In this document: piece after piece, positions 10,246 through 19,176 of the stretch | Layout of the letters: each line of letters opens with the position of its first letter | How positions within the stretch are numbered: the first letter of the stretch is position 1 | Source of the DNA: a virus | DNA: 39,635 bases | IMG/VR virus record: IMGVR_UViG_2799112921_000001 | Coordinates: 1 to 39,635 of that record | Strand: one strand, 5' to 3' | Notes under the pieces: generated by a model | What the model saw: the letters and a program-made list of their open reading frames with translations, nothing else | Databases searched by the model: none | What the model was told of the DNA's origin: nothing | Program-made: the position numbers and the translations under genes

Positions 10246-13200
10246 CTATACTCCTCCCATACGGGCAATTCTTTTATCTCTTTTTATTAAAGCATCAGCA
10301 ATCTTATTTATCACGTTTTTATCACTGATTTTTTCAGTTAACATTTTAATAAGAGAATCTGTATCAACATCTTCGGTTTTACCGTCAACATTGACATTGA
10401 CATTATGCTCCAATATTAATTTAACCTCTTCTACATTACTTGCATCATCTTTATTATTATCAAATAAGCTTTCTAATGGATTGGTGTTTCGTCTAGGATT
10501 AATTCCACCACGATTTGGGATTTTGATATTGATTCCGCCAGCACTTGGGGCTGGATGACTATAATTACATGGTCCAGCTGTCCAACCTCCACGCTGTTTT
10601 AAAGCAGTAGTATCAAAGGTATAACCATTAATTATTGCACAACAATGACCATCAGAACCCCAATTCAATCCACAATTTACATAACCACTATAACCACAGG
10701 CATTAGCTAAAGCAACCATTGCAGATGCACCATCGAAACAATTCCAAGCACCATGAGCAATAGCATTCTGCCAGGAACCATATTTATCACTGTTGTAATA
10801 ATAATCATAAGGAATAGCACTTGCTATAGCAGTAGCAATACGGACAAATGAACCCCAACTAATATGAGGAGTTCCAGATTCAAAATCAGAAACTTTAAAG
10901 GATAATCCTGTATCAATATCGCCTACACCAGTATGTATGGCAGGTCCTCTCATTTGCCATTCACGAGCAGTATTTTTGATGTGTGTTACGTTTGGATCTA
11001 CAACACCATCCCAACTACCAGCAACACAATTAGGACAAATTCCACTTTGCAACAAATCAAGCACATTCAAACGGCTAGATGATGTTTTATTCATATATTC
11101 AAGAGTTAATGGGTCAATTATCCCATTTTGTTGAGCTTTAGTTGCAGTAATAGTATAAGGTAATTGATTATCACGCCTTATAGTGTTAGCTACTCCACGT
11201 GTTAAACGATGCATTACAGCAGGGTCACGTCCTGTGTGTCTTACAGTAGATGGTGTTCCATTACTTCCACCACCTGCCCATTGACTTGGATTTTGCAATT
11301 TACGATAGAAAGTACCAATAGTACTGCTTAATTGGTCAAAATAAGCAGCAGCTTCATTACGTATACGTGCAGCAGCACTTATTATACTATCTGCCATTAC
11401 AGCCCATGCAGACCTCATTTCACCAGTAACTTTCATAGTTTCAGATAACATCTGAGCTAATTGTTGACGTGTAGTATTTGTAGCATTATTCATAGCAGCA
11501 CGGTGAGTCATTAACATGTTGTTTAATTGAGTACGCAAATTAGTGCTCATAGAAAGCAAGTTTAAGTTTAAACCTGTACTAATATTTTGGAAAGTACTTA
11601 AATCATTAGTTTGTATAGCCCCATAAGCTAATTGGTCTTGTAAAACCATATTGTTTAGTGTGGTCATCATCATTGTGGCTAAGGCATTGTAAGATTCACC
11701 AATCATGGTATTAGTATCATCAGTCATTCCCATTGCAGAGTCTAAACCACCACTAATACTTGACAAATCAATATCTGCCATATCAACATTTTCTAATGGA
11801 TTAGCATCTAAGTCTTGATATGGCATTAAATCTTCTGTATCCATACTTAATTTAGGCTCACCGAACTTATCAACGATAGCCTCACCAACTTGACGTGCAT
11901 ACTCACCAGCAGGTTTAATAGTATCCTTAATCTTAGTAACAACACCTTTAAACTCCTCACCAATACTATTCTGAGCAATACCTGGACTGTGAATACCCAT
12001 GGCATCAAGTACACCATTAATAATATCTTTACCAAAATTAAGAGCAGCCGCTATTGCCTGAGGTATAGCTTCACGTATACGATCAGGGACCTTGATAAAT
12101 TCATCATAAATCTTACCCGGTAATTCCTGAACAGTAGTTGCTGCACCATTAACCATTTCACCAGCTTTCTGACGTGCATTATCTACCCATTGACCACCAG
12201 CAGAAATAATATTGCTTGTGGTTTGAACTAGAAAATCCCAAACACGTCCCGGAAGTTGGGAAATGTAATTAACCACCCCATTTAAGAAATTAGTACCTGC
12301 ACTAACAGCATAATTCCATACTTGACCTGCAAAATTCAAAATCGCATTAGCAATAACCATCATAATTTGAATCCACATTTGAGAGAGTAATCCCCAAATA
12401 CCTAATAACAATGCAGGTAAATCTATTTGACCTGTTTTGAATTGGTCAAAAACACCTATTATACCAACCATAGTAGTCCAGACAATAGTTAAAACTTGAA
12501 CTATAACATCCCATATTGGAGCAAATACACTCATAAGGAATTCACCTAGAGGTTGTAATGTTTGCCATAACCATTCAAAAGCAGGAACCAAACTCCCCAT
12601 TAACCATTCACCAACACTAGCCAAAGCAGCAAATAATCCATCAATCGCAGCACGTACAGTATCATTAGTATTATACAAGTAAATTAACGCAGCAACAAGC
12701 GCCATTATTGCAATAACTATAATCATTACAGGGTTTGCATCTAGCAATGCATTCCAAACAGCAGTAGCTGCATTAACTAACCATTGATACGCTGCATAAA
12801 GCTTTGCCTTTATTCCTGCTAGACTAATTCCATCAGCTAATGATCTGAATTTATCTGCAAGAGTAGCTATTTTTTCAGCTGCAATCTCTCTGATTTTGCT
12901 AAGTAAATCAATCAATTTATCTTTAGCAAGTAAAATTTTATCTTTTAATTCAGAAAATTTAGTTTTTAATATTTCAAGTTTATCTGCTGCATTTTCACGC
13001 ATTTTACTAAGGAAATCAACAAGATTTCCTTTTGCATCAACAATTTTGTCTTTAATCTCTTGGAATTTTTGTTTGATAGTATTTAGTTTTCCTTCATTCC
13101 AACTAGTCGATAATTTATCTTTTAATTCTTGAAGTTTTTCTTTTGCAGAATTCACCTTTTCTTTAAATGAATCCCATTTACCTTGCATATTTTGGATAGT

Positions 13201-14573
13201 TTCCTCAAGATTTGATAATTTATCTTTTACCCATGCTGCACTATTCCATAATTGTCCTAAAACTTGTAATACTGGGCTGATTGATGGAGCCATTGTAGCG
13301 AATGCACTTGCAGCAGTCATAGCTCCAGCAGCATATTTCATCCAATTTTTAGCACCCTCATCAACTTTACCATCATTATTTGCATCAACAAATTTAAGAA
13401 CAGAATCAAGTGCATCGTCAACCATTGGTTTAAATTCATCACCTAGGCTTCTTGCTGACACACTCCACATTTTCTTTAATCGAGTAATTTTACCATGTGT
13501 AGTGTCCATCATACTACTGACGTCACCACTTTGTTTTAAACAATCTTCTAAAGCTTTAGTATAACCATCAATATCATCAGCACTACCACTCCATCCGGCA
13601 TTTTCAAGTTTTTCTTTTGTGATACCAAAGTTTTCTTTGAGCATTTCAAATTCGCCGTTGAGACCTTTACCTGCTGCTTGCATAAGTCCCATGGCTTCAT
13701 CCCCAGATTTACCCATAAGAATGGCTCTTTGACCAATATCTAACAAAATACTTTCAAATGAATTTAACTGGTCTCCAGTAGCTCCAGTCATTTGTTTTAC
13801 CACCGACAATGATTGTGCTAGTTGGTCAAGAGAAACAAGAGACTTATTTGTATCATCATCCATTTTATTCCATAGTTGATTGAACTTTTCTGTGGATTGC
13901 CCCGCACCTAAAAGAGCAGAACTTAAATGTTGGATTCTCTCCCGAGATATGGACGCACCTATTGTCATATCGGACATTGCTGCCAAACCAATTCCACCAA
14001 ATACTGATGAAATTATTCCACCAACACCACTAAAAGCATCACCCAAACTTTGAATTTTAGTTTTCACTGTAGATAATGCATTTGTTAAAGTGGATTTAAT
14101 ATGTGATGCTACATTAGAAACTTTTCCTTTTATAGTATCCCATTTTGTACCAACATAAGTTGTAATAGCAGATCCAACAACCTGGAGTTTGCCTTTCAAT
14201 GTATCTGTGCTAGTACCCAGCATGTTTAATTTGTTTTTGGCATAATCAAGACTACCTTTCCAAGTATTAGTTTCAACAGTTAACTCATTAAATCTATTAA
14301 TAAGTGCTGTTGTTTCATAGGTTAAATTCCCACCGAAACCTCTCCCCAATTCTCTAATAGCCATTAAAGTAGTTTGAGCTTCGTCATCTAATTTGTGGAA
14401 TTGCACTACAGCTTGCTGTTGGGATTGTGAAAGCTTGTTAAAACTATCTTTTCCTTTATTACCTACTTCAATATATTGCCGAATTTTTTAATCATTTGGT
14501 CGGCTTTTTGAGCTACACTAGTGGCTTGGTCTTCCATTTTCAGTATAATATTAATTATATTCTGAGAAACCAT
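10246..14573 (-). CDS. Tape measure protein with C-terminal transglutaminase-like Cys-His-Asp domain; frameshifted near the 5' end
   Basis: Tape-measure-like domain, W/F-spaced helical repeats, position after the chaperone. ATG 14573 with GGTGG SD stops at TAG 14463-14465; the -1 frame is open from 14487 to 10246. Confidence 0.85.
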
Positions 14574-14590
14574 CTAGCCACACCACCAAT

Positions 14591-14755
14591 TTATTTTTTA
14601 TCGACTTTATTCATCTCTTTATGTAACTCAGCACGACCTTTAACAATAAAATAAGATTGAACAACGGTTAAATCACTGCTACGCTCACATAAATGGTATC
14701 CACAGTAATCCAACCATATAATATTTTGACCTTCAGTCGTCTTCAGGAAATTTGT
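14591..14755 (-). CDS. gpT-like frameshift extension of the tail assembly chaperone (+1 frame)
   Basis: Open frame TNFLKTTEGQNIIWLDYCGYHL...VDKK* between TAG 14756-14758 and TAA 14591-14593; no usable ATG; fills the gap between chaperone and TMP. Confidence 0.7.
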   Translation of the reverse strand, partial: TNFLKTTEGQNIIWLDYCGYHLCERSSDLTVVQSYFIVKGRAELHKEMNKVDKK

Positions 14756-15164
14756 CTATATCTCCTTCAGTAACACCAACACCAGATAATGCATCTATTT
14801 TTTCGATAAGTTCCTCAATTGCATCACGTTTTAATTGATTAATATCCTCTTCAGTCCAAGGATCATCCTGATTTTTAGGATTATCAAGACTCATTTCTAT
14901 TTTACGAGTTCTTGCTTTTGCACTGTTTACAGTAGCTTTGTAAACGTTGATTTCACCATTTGCAACAGTTTCGCCTTGCACTTTTCCACGTGATTTACTG
15001 GTTGTTTTATAAGATTCCATTCCTTTAGATTCTATCTTATCAATTTCATCTAATTCTGAATTAGATAATGGTCTTAACCATAATTCACCATCTAATGCGT
15101 TGATTGTTATTTTTTCAGGGTCGTTTATTCCTTTTAAAATATCAGATTTTTTTAATAATGCCAT
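14733..15164 (-). CDS. Tail assembly chaperone (gpG-like)
   Basis: 143-aa acidic ORF between tail tube and TMP; LWLRPLS motif; GGAGG SD. Confidence 0.8.
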   Translation of the reverse strand: MALLKKSDILKGINDPEKITINALDGELWLRPLSNSELDEIDKIESKGMESYKTTSKSRGKVQGETVANGEINVYKATVNSAKARTRKIEMSLDNPKNQDDPWTEEDINQLKRDAIEELIEKIDALSGVGVTEGDIDKFPEDD

Positions 15165-15197: not shown

Positions 15198-15458
15198 TTA
15201 TATTTCTTCTAAAATAATTTCTAAGGTTTCAGTTTCGGAAGTAATGTTTACTTCTTGAGTATAATTTTCATAACCTTCTTTAGTTGCTGTTATTGTAACA
15301 GTTCCTACAGGCACGTTTCTTAGTGTACATCCACCAGCATTTCCTGTAGTGCTTGTAATATCACCAATAGCAACTTCAACTTGACTTACTGGATTTTCTC
15401 CATCCGTCACATGAACTTGAATATTTACTGTTTCAGGATTCACCTCAGATGCTGGGAG
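15198..15458 (-). CDS. Ig-like (carboxypeptidase-regulatory/PEGA-like) domain, probably a +1 frameshift extension of the tail tube protein
   Basis: VHVTDGENPVSQVEV...TGNAGGCTLRNVPVGTVTITATKEGY; frame opens after TAG 15459-15461 and overlaps the last tube codons; the GTG at 15443 lacks an upstream SD. Confidence 0.75.
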   Translation of the reverse strand, partial: LPASEVNPETVNIQVHVTDGENPVSQVEVAIGDITSTTGNAGGCTLRNVPVGTVTITATKEGYENYTQEVNITSETETLEIILEEI

Positions 15459-16479
15459 CTATCTCAGGCATGTTATTGACGAGTTTCACATACATATCTG
15501 TTGTAACTTCACTACCATCCATTAATGTAACTTTATCTGAACCTAATGTAGCCATATTTAATGTAGCTTCAACATCATCAACACCTGATGAATCAAATTC
15601 AGCAAGTAATGTGCATTTAGGGAAGAAAATAGTTAAACCTAAATCAGGATATTCACATAATTCAACATTAACTTTGAATGGAACTTGTAAAATCTTACAT
15701 TTAGTAGGTCTTACAGCCCCTACATCACCATATCTTGCGTCAAGAATGGAATCAACAGTTTCTCCTGTTAATGTAGTTACAACACTGATGTTATTTTCTC
15801 TTTTATTTGCTTTTGCTTGACCTTGAGGATGTCTAGCACCAAAACCAATAGTTTTATCTACATCATGATTATTTCCAGATTCAATTGTGAGACTTGTTTG
15901 TATTCCATCAGGATCTTTACCATTCAATTCCAATGTAATATCATAAAACATGATGAATAAATCATTTTTTAATTCTTCAGTAACTCTTTCATATTCCGCT
16001 CCGTTTTTTAATTTGTCGGAAAACTCTGTTTTGTAAATGAAATCAGCACCGAGAGTCATGTCTTCACTTGAACATTCTAATTTCATAGAATCAACAAGTA
16101 ATCCTATCAAGTATAATACAAATTCATCTTCTACTGATACTCCTCTGAAACTTTTTAATAATTTGCTTTCACTACCCCAAAATTCGTGGATGTTTTCATC
16201 ACCATTTCCAGCAGTGAACTTATATTGATCTAATAACGCCCATAAATAATGTCCAATTATTTGAAGGTTTGCTGAAGTTTCAATTGATCCGGTTGGTTTC
16301 ATTACTCCAGCTCTTGATTTTTGATTCATACGAGAACCAAAAGATTTTGTTACCGGTTCGTCATTAAGTTTGAAATCCATTGAATCAACATCATGGTCGA
16401 AGTCCAAATTAAATTGTTCTTTGGTTTTTTCCTCACCATATGCATATTCTGGTTCAAGTCCAAAAACTCTACAAGTCAT
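15445..16479 (-). CDS. Major tail tube protein
   Basis: 344 aa, RVFGLEPEYAYG N-terminus, beta-rich; lies between tail terminator and chaperone. Confidence 0.8.
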   Translation of the reverse strand: MTCRVFGLEPEYAYGEEKTKEQFNLDFDHDVDSMDFKLNDEPVTKSFGSRMNQKSRAGVMKPTGSIETSANLQIIGHYLWALLDQYKFTAGNGDENIHEFWGSESKLLKSFRGVSVEDEFVLYLIGLLVDSMKLECSSEDMTLGADFIYKTEFSDKLKNGAEYERVTEELKNDLFIMFYDITLELNGKDPDGIQTSLTIESGNNHDVDKTIGFGARHPQGQAKANKRENNISVVTTLTGETVDSILDARYGDVGAVRPTKCKILQVPFKVNVELCEYPDLGLTIFFPKCTLLAEFDSSGVDDVEATLNMATLGSDKVTLMDGSEVTTDMYVKLVNNMPEIAPSI

Positions 16480-17898: not shown

Positions 17899-18081
17899 TC
17901 AACCATCATCACCATCATTACCTGCATTATCATCTTCAGGCTCAGGCTGCAATTCAGGAGTAGAATCAGTATTTTCTGACTCCATTACTGGAAGTTCACC
18001 AGTCCTCATATATTCATATAATAAGCCCCTGCTCCTGCGAACACGAACAGGCAACTTATGCCAAGCCAATAAGTCAGTCAT
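17899..18081 (-). CDS. Small hypothetical protein with acidic tail
   Basis: 60 aa with GGTGA SD; lies between capsid and connector genes. Confidence 0.7.
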   Translation of the reverse strand: MTDLLAWHKLPVRVRRSRGLLYEYMRTGELPVMESENTDSTPELQPEPEDDNAGNDGDDG

Positions 18082-18096
18082 GAAAAATCACCTTAA

Positions 18097-19176
18097 TTAT
18101 ACTTTAGCTTCATCTTGAATAACAGCTAATTCATCTAAAGTTAATTTAGCAGAGTTAATAACACTGAACACCTCTTTTCCAGCACAACCTTTCATCCTAT
18201 ACCAGAAATTAGTTCTTTCTTGTCCAGCCTTTCTTTCTAATTCCATGCTAATATCTTTATAAACTCCCCAAGTGATTGTATCAGGGAATGCACCCATACA
18301 GGTAGCTGTATTATCTAATGCTTTACAGTCTGGACTGTCTAATACTGGAGCATATTTAATTTGATAACGTTTGTACATTAATGGAGCATTACCTGTTTGC
18401 ATATCATCCCCGAGTTTAGTGTTACGTGATTTTAACAAGTTGCGGTAAGCATCTTCGACTTCATAGGGGACATAAATCACATAGTTATTCATTAATTGGG
18501 ATTGTCTAATACGTGGAGGTACAGCTGCAATAAGTGCATCAAATAATGCTTCAATAGTATCTTCATGAACATTGAAAGCTTTTTCAGCATTAGTAGAACC
18601 GTATTCACTGGATTTGAGAATATTACTCATTTTCACCCATCCATCGAAAGTGTGGAATAAAGGTTCATCATTGTATCCTAAATCAGTATCCCCGAATACT
18701 GCAATAGCTTCTAAATCCTCACCCATACGCTGACCCATCATAGATTGAAGAGTAGATTCAAATTGAGTACCTTCTATGTTATCATCAAGATCATCATCAA
18801 GAAGATGTGTTTTTGCTTTTAATTTTCTAGCATGTAATTTAGAATGTTCAAAGTCTAATTCTGCTTCTTTTAAATCTTCTTTAGTTTGTCTACCATTATT
18901 AGTACCATCATCTTCCATGTAACCGTCTTGTAATACCCTACCTTCAATTTTTGAACCAGAAAGAACTTCCTCTTCACGAGTCATTCTTTTAAATGCTGCA
19001 TCTGCAAGAATAGTAGTATTAAGTTGCATTTCAAGAACAAATTTATTATATTGTTTACGGTCAAGTATACCGGCATTGGCTTTCATTTTATCATACATGG
19101 TGTCTTCTTTAGTTGCACCATTAGCAAGTCCTGCTGCCTCGACTATATGATTTAAAACTGCATTCATATTTACCAT
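18097..19176 (-). CDS. Major capsid protein (HK97 fold)
   Basis: 359 aa after the protease; GILDRKQYNKF, DDLDDNIEG..FESTL, GDTD motifs of P2/XkdG-like capsids. Confidence 0.85.
   Translation of the reverse strand: MVNMNAVLNHIVEAAGLANGATKEDTMYDKMKANAGILDRKQYNKFVLEMQLNTTILADAAFKRMTREEEVLSGSKIEGRVLQDGYMEDDGTNNGRQTKEDLKEAELDFEHSKLHARKLKAKTHLLDDDLDDNIEGTQFESTLQSMMGQRMGEDLEAIAVFGDTDLGYNDEPLFHTFDGWVKMSNILKSSEYGSTNAEKAFNVHEDTIEALFDALIAAVPPRIRQSQLMNNYVIYVPYEVEDAYRNLLKSRNTKLGDDMQTGNAPLMYKRYQIKYAPVLDSPDCKALDNTATCMGAFPDTITWGVYKDISMELERKAGQERTNFWYRMKGCAGKEVFSVINSAKLTLDELAVIQDEAKV

Follow-up and report, generated by a model that had tools for sequence, protein, structure and literature searches.

A probable programmed +1 frameshift at a rare CCC codon that would add a beta-sandwich domain to the tail tube protein of a Methanobrevibacter virus

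Introduction

In the viral record IMGVR_UViG_2799112921_000001 (IMG/VR), all 39,635 nucleotides of which were analyzed and are referred to here as the window, the gene for the tail tube protein ends in an unusual way: a short open reading frame (ORF) that encodes a beta-sandwich domain overlaps its 3' end in the +1 frame. The window is located on contig C86 of a 2.28-Mb Methanobrevibacter metagenome-assembled genome (MAG; 92% complete) and represents a provirus of this gut/rumen methanogen. The locus raises the question whether this short ORF is a gene in its own right, the broken-off part of a gene that is really continuous, or a C-terminal extension of the tube protein that is reached by ribosomes changing frame. 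The evidence collected below from the locus and its relatives argues for the last of these, i.e., a programmed +1 slip at a rare CCC codon very probably yields a longer tube protein with a C-terminal sandwich.

The tail tube proteins gp17.1 and gp17.1* of phage SPP1 were reportedly described by Auzat et al. in 2008, and the frameshifts in the tail and capsid genes of Listeria phages are said to go back to Zimmer in 2003 and Dorscht in 2009. For archaea, we know of no experimentally proven programmed +1 frameshift. In SPP1, a +1 shift at the rare CCC codon of CCCUAA adds 87 aa to give gp17.1*, and the short and long forms occur in tails in a 3:1 ratio (PMC6316719). The Listeria phages PSA, A118, and A500 extend their tail protein (Tsh) by a +1 shift on a Pro codon next to the stop and their capsid protein (Cps) by a shift of +1 or -1, with A118 and A500 combining a -1 shift in the capsid gene and a +1 shift in the tail gene (PMC5009743). 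The first-pass annotation of the window had named SPP1 and A118 together as users of +1 shifts in tube or capsid proteins; this holds for SPP1 and for the A118 tail, and has to be corrected for the A118 capsid, where the shift is -1 (PMC5009743).

As to archaeal viruses, a +1 shift has been predicted for the chaperone gene of HSTV-2 (PMC5009743). In MSTV1-like viruses of Methanobrevibacter, the capsid protein gains an Ig-like domain through a -1 shift at A AAG GAA, and a capsid variant with the domain fused in frame has been described as well (PMC11375127); the text of that paper makes no mention of a frameshift in the tube gene. No report of a CCC +1 shift for the tail of an archaeal virus was found in the literature, in which the compendium of Medvedeva et al. 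2023 could mention one.

Results and discussion

The shift site and its predicted product

The tube gene (16479..15445, minus strand) encodes 344 aa and stops at TGA 15447-15445, its 0 frame ending with CCT GAG ATA GCT CCC AGC ATC TGA. The +1-frame ORF (15198..15458, minus strand) consists of 86 codons followed by TAA 15200-15198, and encodes the linker ASEVNPET and the beta-sandwich domain; a TAG in the same frame (15459..15461, minus strand) sets the 5' limit for a shift. Because only the 14 nt CT CCC AGC ATC TGA (15445..15458, minus strand) are open in both frames, the shift is confined to this overlap. The proposed P-site shift codon is CCC (Pro; 15456-15454, minus strand), whose +1 codon is CCA (15455-15453). 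The positions and frames reported in the first-pass annotation, namely the TAG, the string GCT CCC AGC ATC TGA, and the step from CCC to CCA, were all recovered on the minus strand.

According to the mechanism proposed here, most ribosomes would read GCT CCC AGC ATC and terminate at the TGA, giving the 344-aa tube protein. In some ribosomes, the peptidyl-tRNA-Pro on the P-site CCC would move one base forward to CCA, and GCA TCT GAG GTG AAT CCT... would then be read in the +1 frame. The predicted slip product, with the junction ...EIAP|ASEVNPETV..., has 426 aa and would be composed of the tube protein up to Pro342, the flexible linker ASEVNPET, and a transthyretin-like sandwich of about 75 residues. 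The computed extension of 82 aa relative to the 0-frame protein (about 9 kDa) agrees with the second tube form, some 9 kDa larger, that had been predicted before. Both forms would co-assemble, so that just some subunits per ring carry the domain on the tail exterior, where its probable function would be adhesion to glycans on the host surface or in the gut mucus. That ribosomes do shift at this site, and at what rate, we infer.

Junctions in related viruses

A protein search returned 606 tube homologues, most of them about 345 aa long and a minority of 431-445 aa with the domain family PF13620 fused in frame; among the best 120 of the 606, 34 have a C-terminal proline. The junctions were classified for 13 genome loci (12 of them from Methanobrevibacter MAGs), 80 viral contigs, three phage records, and four further contigs, and fall into three states: an in-frame fusion (nine loci, including vir075 of Methanobrevibacter gottschalkii), no domain (about 70 loci), and a +1 overlap (21 loci, including the window). 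The overlapping domain frame is +1 in all 21. Among the approximately 100 loci, neither a -1 domain frame at the tube gene nor a spaced domain gene with its own Shine-Dalgarno (SD) sequence was found.

The CCC of the +1 junctions is found in two contexts. The type CCC AGY NNN TGA, to which the window belongs, is shared by L005/L021/L023, L017-L020, L012, and L098; in L028/L007, five codons and a further CCC stand between the CCC AGT and the TGA. A shifty-stop type, CCC TAA or CCC TGA, is found in L097, L004, L006, L099, L016, L025/L026, L100, and L076. In two of these, L097 and L076, the frame overlap is just 8 nt long, i.e., CCC plus the stop, which leaves CCC as the sole sense codon available for a shift. 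A virus whose tube protein is 99% identical to that of the window ends its 0 frame with CCC AGT AGC TGA and carries an 84-nt linker insertion that preserves the +1 frame.

The predicted slip products are equally uniform. With the slip at CCC, the Pro is in each of them separated by four residues from (N/D)PET, which is followed by the first domain strand (the window has P|ASEV-NPET, for instance, and L076 has P|NNQA-NPET). The same spacing is seen in the in-frame fusions L039, L041, and L057 (S/T-P-I-x-E-x-(N/T)PET), whose Pro codon is still CCC, and this colinearity with fusions that have retained the CCC pins the shift to that codon. The two arrangements suggest that a single-base change turned frameshift forms into fusions, or fusions into frameshift forms, as far as can be read from the sequences. 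A simple in-frame fusion, which had been put forward as the contrary outcome for this locus, thus exists as a real alternative in other lineages and is not the true state of the window lineage. When the tube domains were placed in a tree, the +1 loci came out on several deep branches (identity to the window as low as 42%), and nested among these branches are the fused clades and a single large clade without the domain; the tree is a quick one with a midpoint root, and the direction of change is left unproven by it.

Association of CCC with the +1 state

A 0-frame CCC lies inside the overlap in 21 of 21 +1 loci, as well as in the variant with the 99%-identical tube protein, so that the expectation that homologues would keep both the codon and the overlap was borne out. 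CCC occurs within the last seven tube codons of all 21 +1 loci vs 2 of 70 domain-less loci (Fisher p ~1e-18, a value inflated by relatedness, with at least 10 distinct junction types still represented); the domain-less loci end with CCA, CCT, or no Pro codon. CCC is the rarest Pro codon, accounting for 6% of Pro codons; its usage per 1000 codons is 1.7 in the window and, over 1207 long ORFs, 1.9 in the host. The tube genes contain 63 CCC among 35,928 codons, and 25 of these 63 are located within the last seven codons.

One of the two domain-less loci with a CCC, L065 (3966-4133), encodes a 499-aa tube protein fused to a different C-terminal domain. Its gene ends TCC CCC AGT AGT CCA TAG, and a 55-codon +1 frame starts P|VVHSVNPT and continues as an acidic tail without a sandwich. 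L065 looks like a relic or variant of the same recoding site.

The added domain

The +1 ORF scores above the Pfam cut-offs (curated gathering thresholds throughout) for CarboxypepD_reg (PF13620, 34.9 bits vs 32.3) and PEGA (PF08308, 25.2 bits vs 20.8), while the classical Ig families Big_3_5 (18.9 vs 35.5) and Big_1 (14.1 vs 34.9) stay below threshold. The domain had been called Ig-like; it is a beta-sandwich as stated, of the transthyretin-like CarboxypepD_reg/PEGA kind and not of a classical Ig family, so that the term applies in a loose sense only. The ORF also aligns with positions 379-426 of a 434-position PHROG profile that matches the tube protein as well, and it was this match that first pointed to fused forms.

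The AlphaFold (AF2) model that was used is that of P0037, the closest in-frame fused homologue (67% identity; mean predicted local distance difference test score, pLDDT, 84.9). It has a disordered linker at residues 351-366 followed by a C-terminal sandwich, which superposes on the transthyretin-like domains of carboxypeptidases D, N, and M with template modelling (TM) scores of 0.68-0.75, normalized to these small targets. The domain ORF is intact in all +1 loci. When the domains of relatives were compared with that of the window, the ratio of nonsynonymous to synonymous substitution rates (dN/dS) was mostly 0.20-0.32, at dS near or above 1. Such ratios indicate that the domain is under purifying selection and very probably translated.

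The tube protein

The identity of the 0-frame protein is supported by profile matches and by gene order. It matches phrog_35581 over its full length (E 2.7e-105), scores 18.2 bits against Pfam Phage_tube_2 (below the cut-off of 27), and has a homologue in vir075 that is annotated as tail tube protein. The tube gene is flanked on one side by genes for a head-tail adaptor, an HK97 gp10-like neck protein, and another small protein, and on the other by those for a tail assembly chaperone (phrog_344) and a tape measure protein of 1386 aa. The P0037 model matches the tube proteins of T5 (pb6), DT57C, and P74-26 (Foldseek E 2.8e-12 to 5.8e-8), including T5 pb6 (PDB 5ngj, 7qg9, 9iny) and the P74-26 tail tube protein (TTP; 8ed0) with their duplicated tube domains, and on the basis of this model the tube protein of the window is of the same double-domain siphovirus type. 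Like the fused homologues described here, T5 pb6 has a C-terminal decoration domain in frame, which we take to be Ig-like. Unlike the window, T5 pb6 and the P74-26 TTP do without recoding, and sequence identity to them is just 8-16%.

Decoding of CCC and candidate stimulators

How CCC could become slippery may depend on the tRNA that reads it. The host MAG contains one tRNA-Pro, with anticodon UGG (ARAGORN). In a 99%-complete congener, Rfam gave 33 tRNA hits, all but one of which were assigned, the remaining one being an 84-nt class II tRNA; the only tRNA-Pro among them is UGG and there is no GGG, and the Val, Thr, Gly, and Ser boxes have both GNN and UNN tRNAs. A BLAST search with the tRNA-Pro gene against 20 relatives did not find a second Pro-like tRNA. 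If tRNA-Pro(UGG) is alone, CCC is read by a U34-C wobble and the +1 codon of the window, CCA, is cognate to that same tRNA. The lone tRNA would then be expected to read CCC weakly and to re-pair better on CCA and, if this is true for the genus, one tRNA would read all CCN codons.

The A-site codon of the window is the moderately rare sense codon AGC (5.4 per 1000), for which relatives have the synonym AGT, the commonest Ser codon; the host MAG has one tRNA-Ser(GCU) gene. With AGT this common, a hungry A-site codon was not favored as trigger.

Alignment of the junctions revealed a conserved motif, GAGGTGAATCCTGAAAC (15430..15446, minus strand), that starts 8 nt after the CCC and has the consensus SAG-GNN-AAT-CCT-GAA-AC. 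Its Glu codon, the third after the shift, is GAG without exception (12 of 12 +1 lineages, 3 of 3 fusions), a codon with a share of just 14% among the Glu codons of the host, and its Pro codon is CCT in 18 of 18 vs a usage of 46%. The motif, which can be written AGG...CCUGAAAC, may stimulate the shift. It resembles an SD sequence (GAGGTGA in the window) and can form an AGG/CCU hairpin of 3-5 bp. A role of GAGGTGA as start signal was rejected because no lineage has a start codon 5-10 nt downstream of it.

A near-palindrome at 15469-15442 (minus strand), CCTGAGATAGCT CCC AGCATCTGAGG, could form a hairpin with the shift codon in its loop (z-score -2.1 for a 131-nt stretch). The closest relatives retain only part of this hairpin, and the shifty-stop lineages do not have it. 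It was discarded as a stimulator, since it is not conserved and would already be melted by a ribosome positioned at the CCC.

Alternative explanations

The proposal that a +1 slip from CCC to CCA fuses the domain to the tube protein of an archaeal virus is supported by the exclusive frame, the conserved CCC, the colinearity with fusions, the dN/dS of the domain, and the lack of conserved starts. The last of these bears on the only serious rival, in which GTG 15443 initiates a separate 81-aa domain protein, probably by termination-reinitiation, that binds the tail non-covalently. The codon is in frame, follows the TGA 15447-15445 at a distance of 1 nt, and is kept in the closest relatives of the window, and gene callers annotate the domain ORF in this way. 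It is the only canonical +1-frame start ahead of the domain, and a scan of the 20 upstream bases found no 4-nt match to the anti-SD complement, confirming the first-pass annotation in both respects; of the 37 long ORFs that the window contains, 17 are preceded by SD matches of at least 5 nt, including the tube (GGTGAT) and chaperone (AGGAGG) genes. The domain ORF has no start of its own that is conserved among lineages: the position of the GTG is taken elsewhere by GGG, GGA, GCG, GCA, GTT, GTA, or GAG, and L076 lacks any start codon between the upstream stop and NPET. A separate protein would, moreover, leave unexplained why the rare CCC is invariant, why the frame is exclusively +1, why the genes overlap, and why the products are colinear with the fusions. 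ORF19 of PhiF3, a small gene of its own behind the tube gene, was considered as a precedent for a free domain and rejected, since its product is coiled-coil-like and no beta-sandwich. Initiation at this GTG, although it could coexist with shifting, is for these reasons an unlikely account of the locus.

An artefact or decay, i.e., an indel in a gene that is truly fused or a domain silenced by a frameshift mutation, might be considered given that related viruses have in-frame fusions whose junctions differ from the +1 forms by roughly one base, and that the same provirus has a frame break in its tape measure gene. The exact tube protein of the window is, however, encoded on 19 contigs, one displayed place (L165) having the same junction, and the architecture recurs in many diverged assemblies from different samples, which excludes the assembly indel that had been raised as a possibility. 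Indels arising at random should lead to the -1 frame as frequently as to the +1 frame and would not preserve the CCC, and the domain ORFs are intact with a dN/dS of 0.2-0.3; artefact or decay is thus very improbable. Transcriptional slippage or a -2 ribosomal shift would reach the same frame, and L025 and L028 do have runs of five C. Most loci have three C only, with no long homopolymer and no site for -2 re-pairing, and the constant spacing of Pro plus four residues fits a +1 slip at CCC, so that these routes carry the smallest probability among the explanations considered, close to negligible.

Several points weigh against programmed slippage at the CCC and have to be set beside this support. 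The usual trigger, a slow A site, is not evident at the sense codon AGC of the window. Host genes do not avoid CCC_A (A follows CCC in 30% of cases vs 35% overall) or CCC_AGY (17 of 990 vs 1.9% expected), and therefore CCC_A alone is probably weakly shift-prone and an extra stimulator must be assumed. A conserved downstream RNA structure was not found across 14 lineages (RNAalifold -1.7 kcal/mol), and single-sequence folds of the 90 nt after the site gave z-scores of about 0 in most of them. The absence of tRNA-Pro(GGG) is drawn from two draft genomes with scans that are able to miss intron-bearing tRNAs. Some termination-reinitiation may take place at GTG 15443 and, since the N-terminus of the tape measure protein is split, the provirus may be defective.

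Comparison with known recoding systems

The closest likeness is to SPP1 gp17.1/gp17.1*. In both cases, the +1 shift would occur at a rare CCC at the 3' end of the tube gene and place a beta-sandwich of approximately 85 aa on a fraction of the subunits. The shifty stop of SPP1 (CCC-UAA/UGA) is also present in relatives of the window, whereas the window itself has CCC AGC with the 0-frame stop two codons further on. SPP1 has a bacterial host, a 177-aa tube protein, and an FN3 domain, in contrast to the archaeal host, the 344-aa double-domain tube protein, and the CarboxypepD_reg domain of the window. The SPP1 extension has been proven at the protein level, while that of the window is predicted from sequence. 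The pairing of a -1 capsid shift with a +1 tail shift in the Listeria phages A118 and A500 has its counterpart in relatives of the window virus; the Listeria phages differ in having bacterial hosts and products confirmed by protein analysis, and the capsid gene of the window is without a -1 extension. The MSTV1-like viruses share with the window the host genus and the use of surface beta-sandwich domains in gut viruses, but their shift affects the capsid and not the tube gene, is -1 and not +1, and uses a different slippery sequence.

In the yeast element Ty3, a +1 frameshift takes place at GCG AGU U with the help of a short unstructured downstream stimulator, and seems to be independent of P-site re-pairing. 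Ty3 and the window are alike in having AGU/AGC in the A site and a linear downstream element, which is meant as an analogy only: Ty3 is eukaryotic and seems to work without P-site re-pairing, whereas the step from CCC to CCA in the window re-pairs well.

These comparisons indicate that a phage-type CCC +1 shift, a mechanism already known from bacterial phages, would here act on the tail tube gene in a family of archaeal viruses. The window and about 20 relatives offer a sharply defined conserved site, down to CCC and a stop within 8 nt, together with natural controls in the form of CCC-retaining in-frame fusions and of domain-less relatives with CCA or CCT. For annotation, this would mean that small 'carboxypeptidase regulatory-like' ORFs after the tube genes of methanogen viruses are C-terminal extensions and not genes. 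Tails would join the capsids of gut and rumen methanogen viruses, which are already thought to bear adhesion-type domains, and the recoding hints at a tuning of how many subunits are decorated. A more far-reaching reading is tentative, its chances being put somewhat below even: a distinct archaeal style of +1 shifting, in which a wobble-read CCC and the linear AGG...CCUGAAAC stimulator suffice and neither a stop nor a structure is needed, with a second conserved +1 shift at TTT C in the chaperone gene, a family that keeps a series of frameshift, fusion, and loss, and thereby the first tractable natural +1 system in archaea.

Other genes of the head and tail modules

The end of the major capsid gene is invariant in relatives of the window virus (CTT GCA TGG TTA AAG GAA GCA TAA). 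In four of them, an ORF with a CarboxypepD_reg domain overlaps this gene in the -1 frame (L097:262-624, L099:316-609, L100:304-618, and L001:814-1107), and the site in these loci corresponds to the published -1 site of the MSTV1-like viruses (PMC11375127). A capsid frameshift in the window was considered and rejected, as its capsid gene (19176..18097) has no -1 site and is followed by an unrelated ORF, which encodes 60 acidic residues (18081..17899) and has no Pfam hit.

Downstream of the tube gene, the chaperone gene (15164..14733, minus strand) is followed by a 54-codon frame (14591-14758) that is +1 and not -1 relative to it and has TAG 14758-14756 as its upstream limit. Four diverged relatives, L097, L098, L099, and L001, share this +1 relation; in them the 0 frame reads TTT CCT GAA and the peptide FLKT.EG..IIWLDYCGYHL is conserved. 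By these signs, the chaperone gene looks like the place of a second conserved +1 shift (TTT to TTC) in the tail module.

The tape measure gene that follows appears to be split. A 36-aa ORF (minus strand; ATG 14573, stop TAG 14465-14463) is homologous to the N-terminus of the tape measure proteins of relatives (MVSQ..I.II...ED.A), and the long tape measure frame opens at 14487 in the -1 frame, directly after an A6 run (14489-14484). The frame break could be a real -1 recoding event, a homopolymer sequencing error, or a defect of the provirus. At its other end, the tape measure protein has a Cys/His-rich stretch, WNCFDG...GHCC, in a C-terminal region (10246-11000, minus strand) that appears to resemble transglutaminase-like or pseudomurein endoisopeptidase domains.

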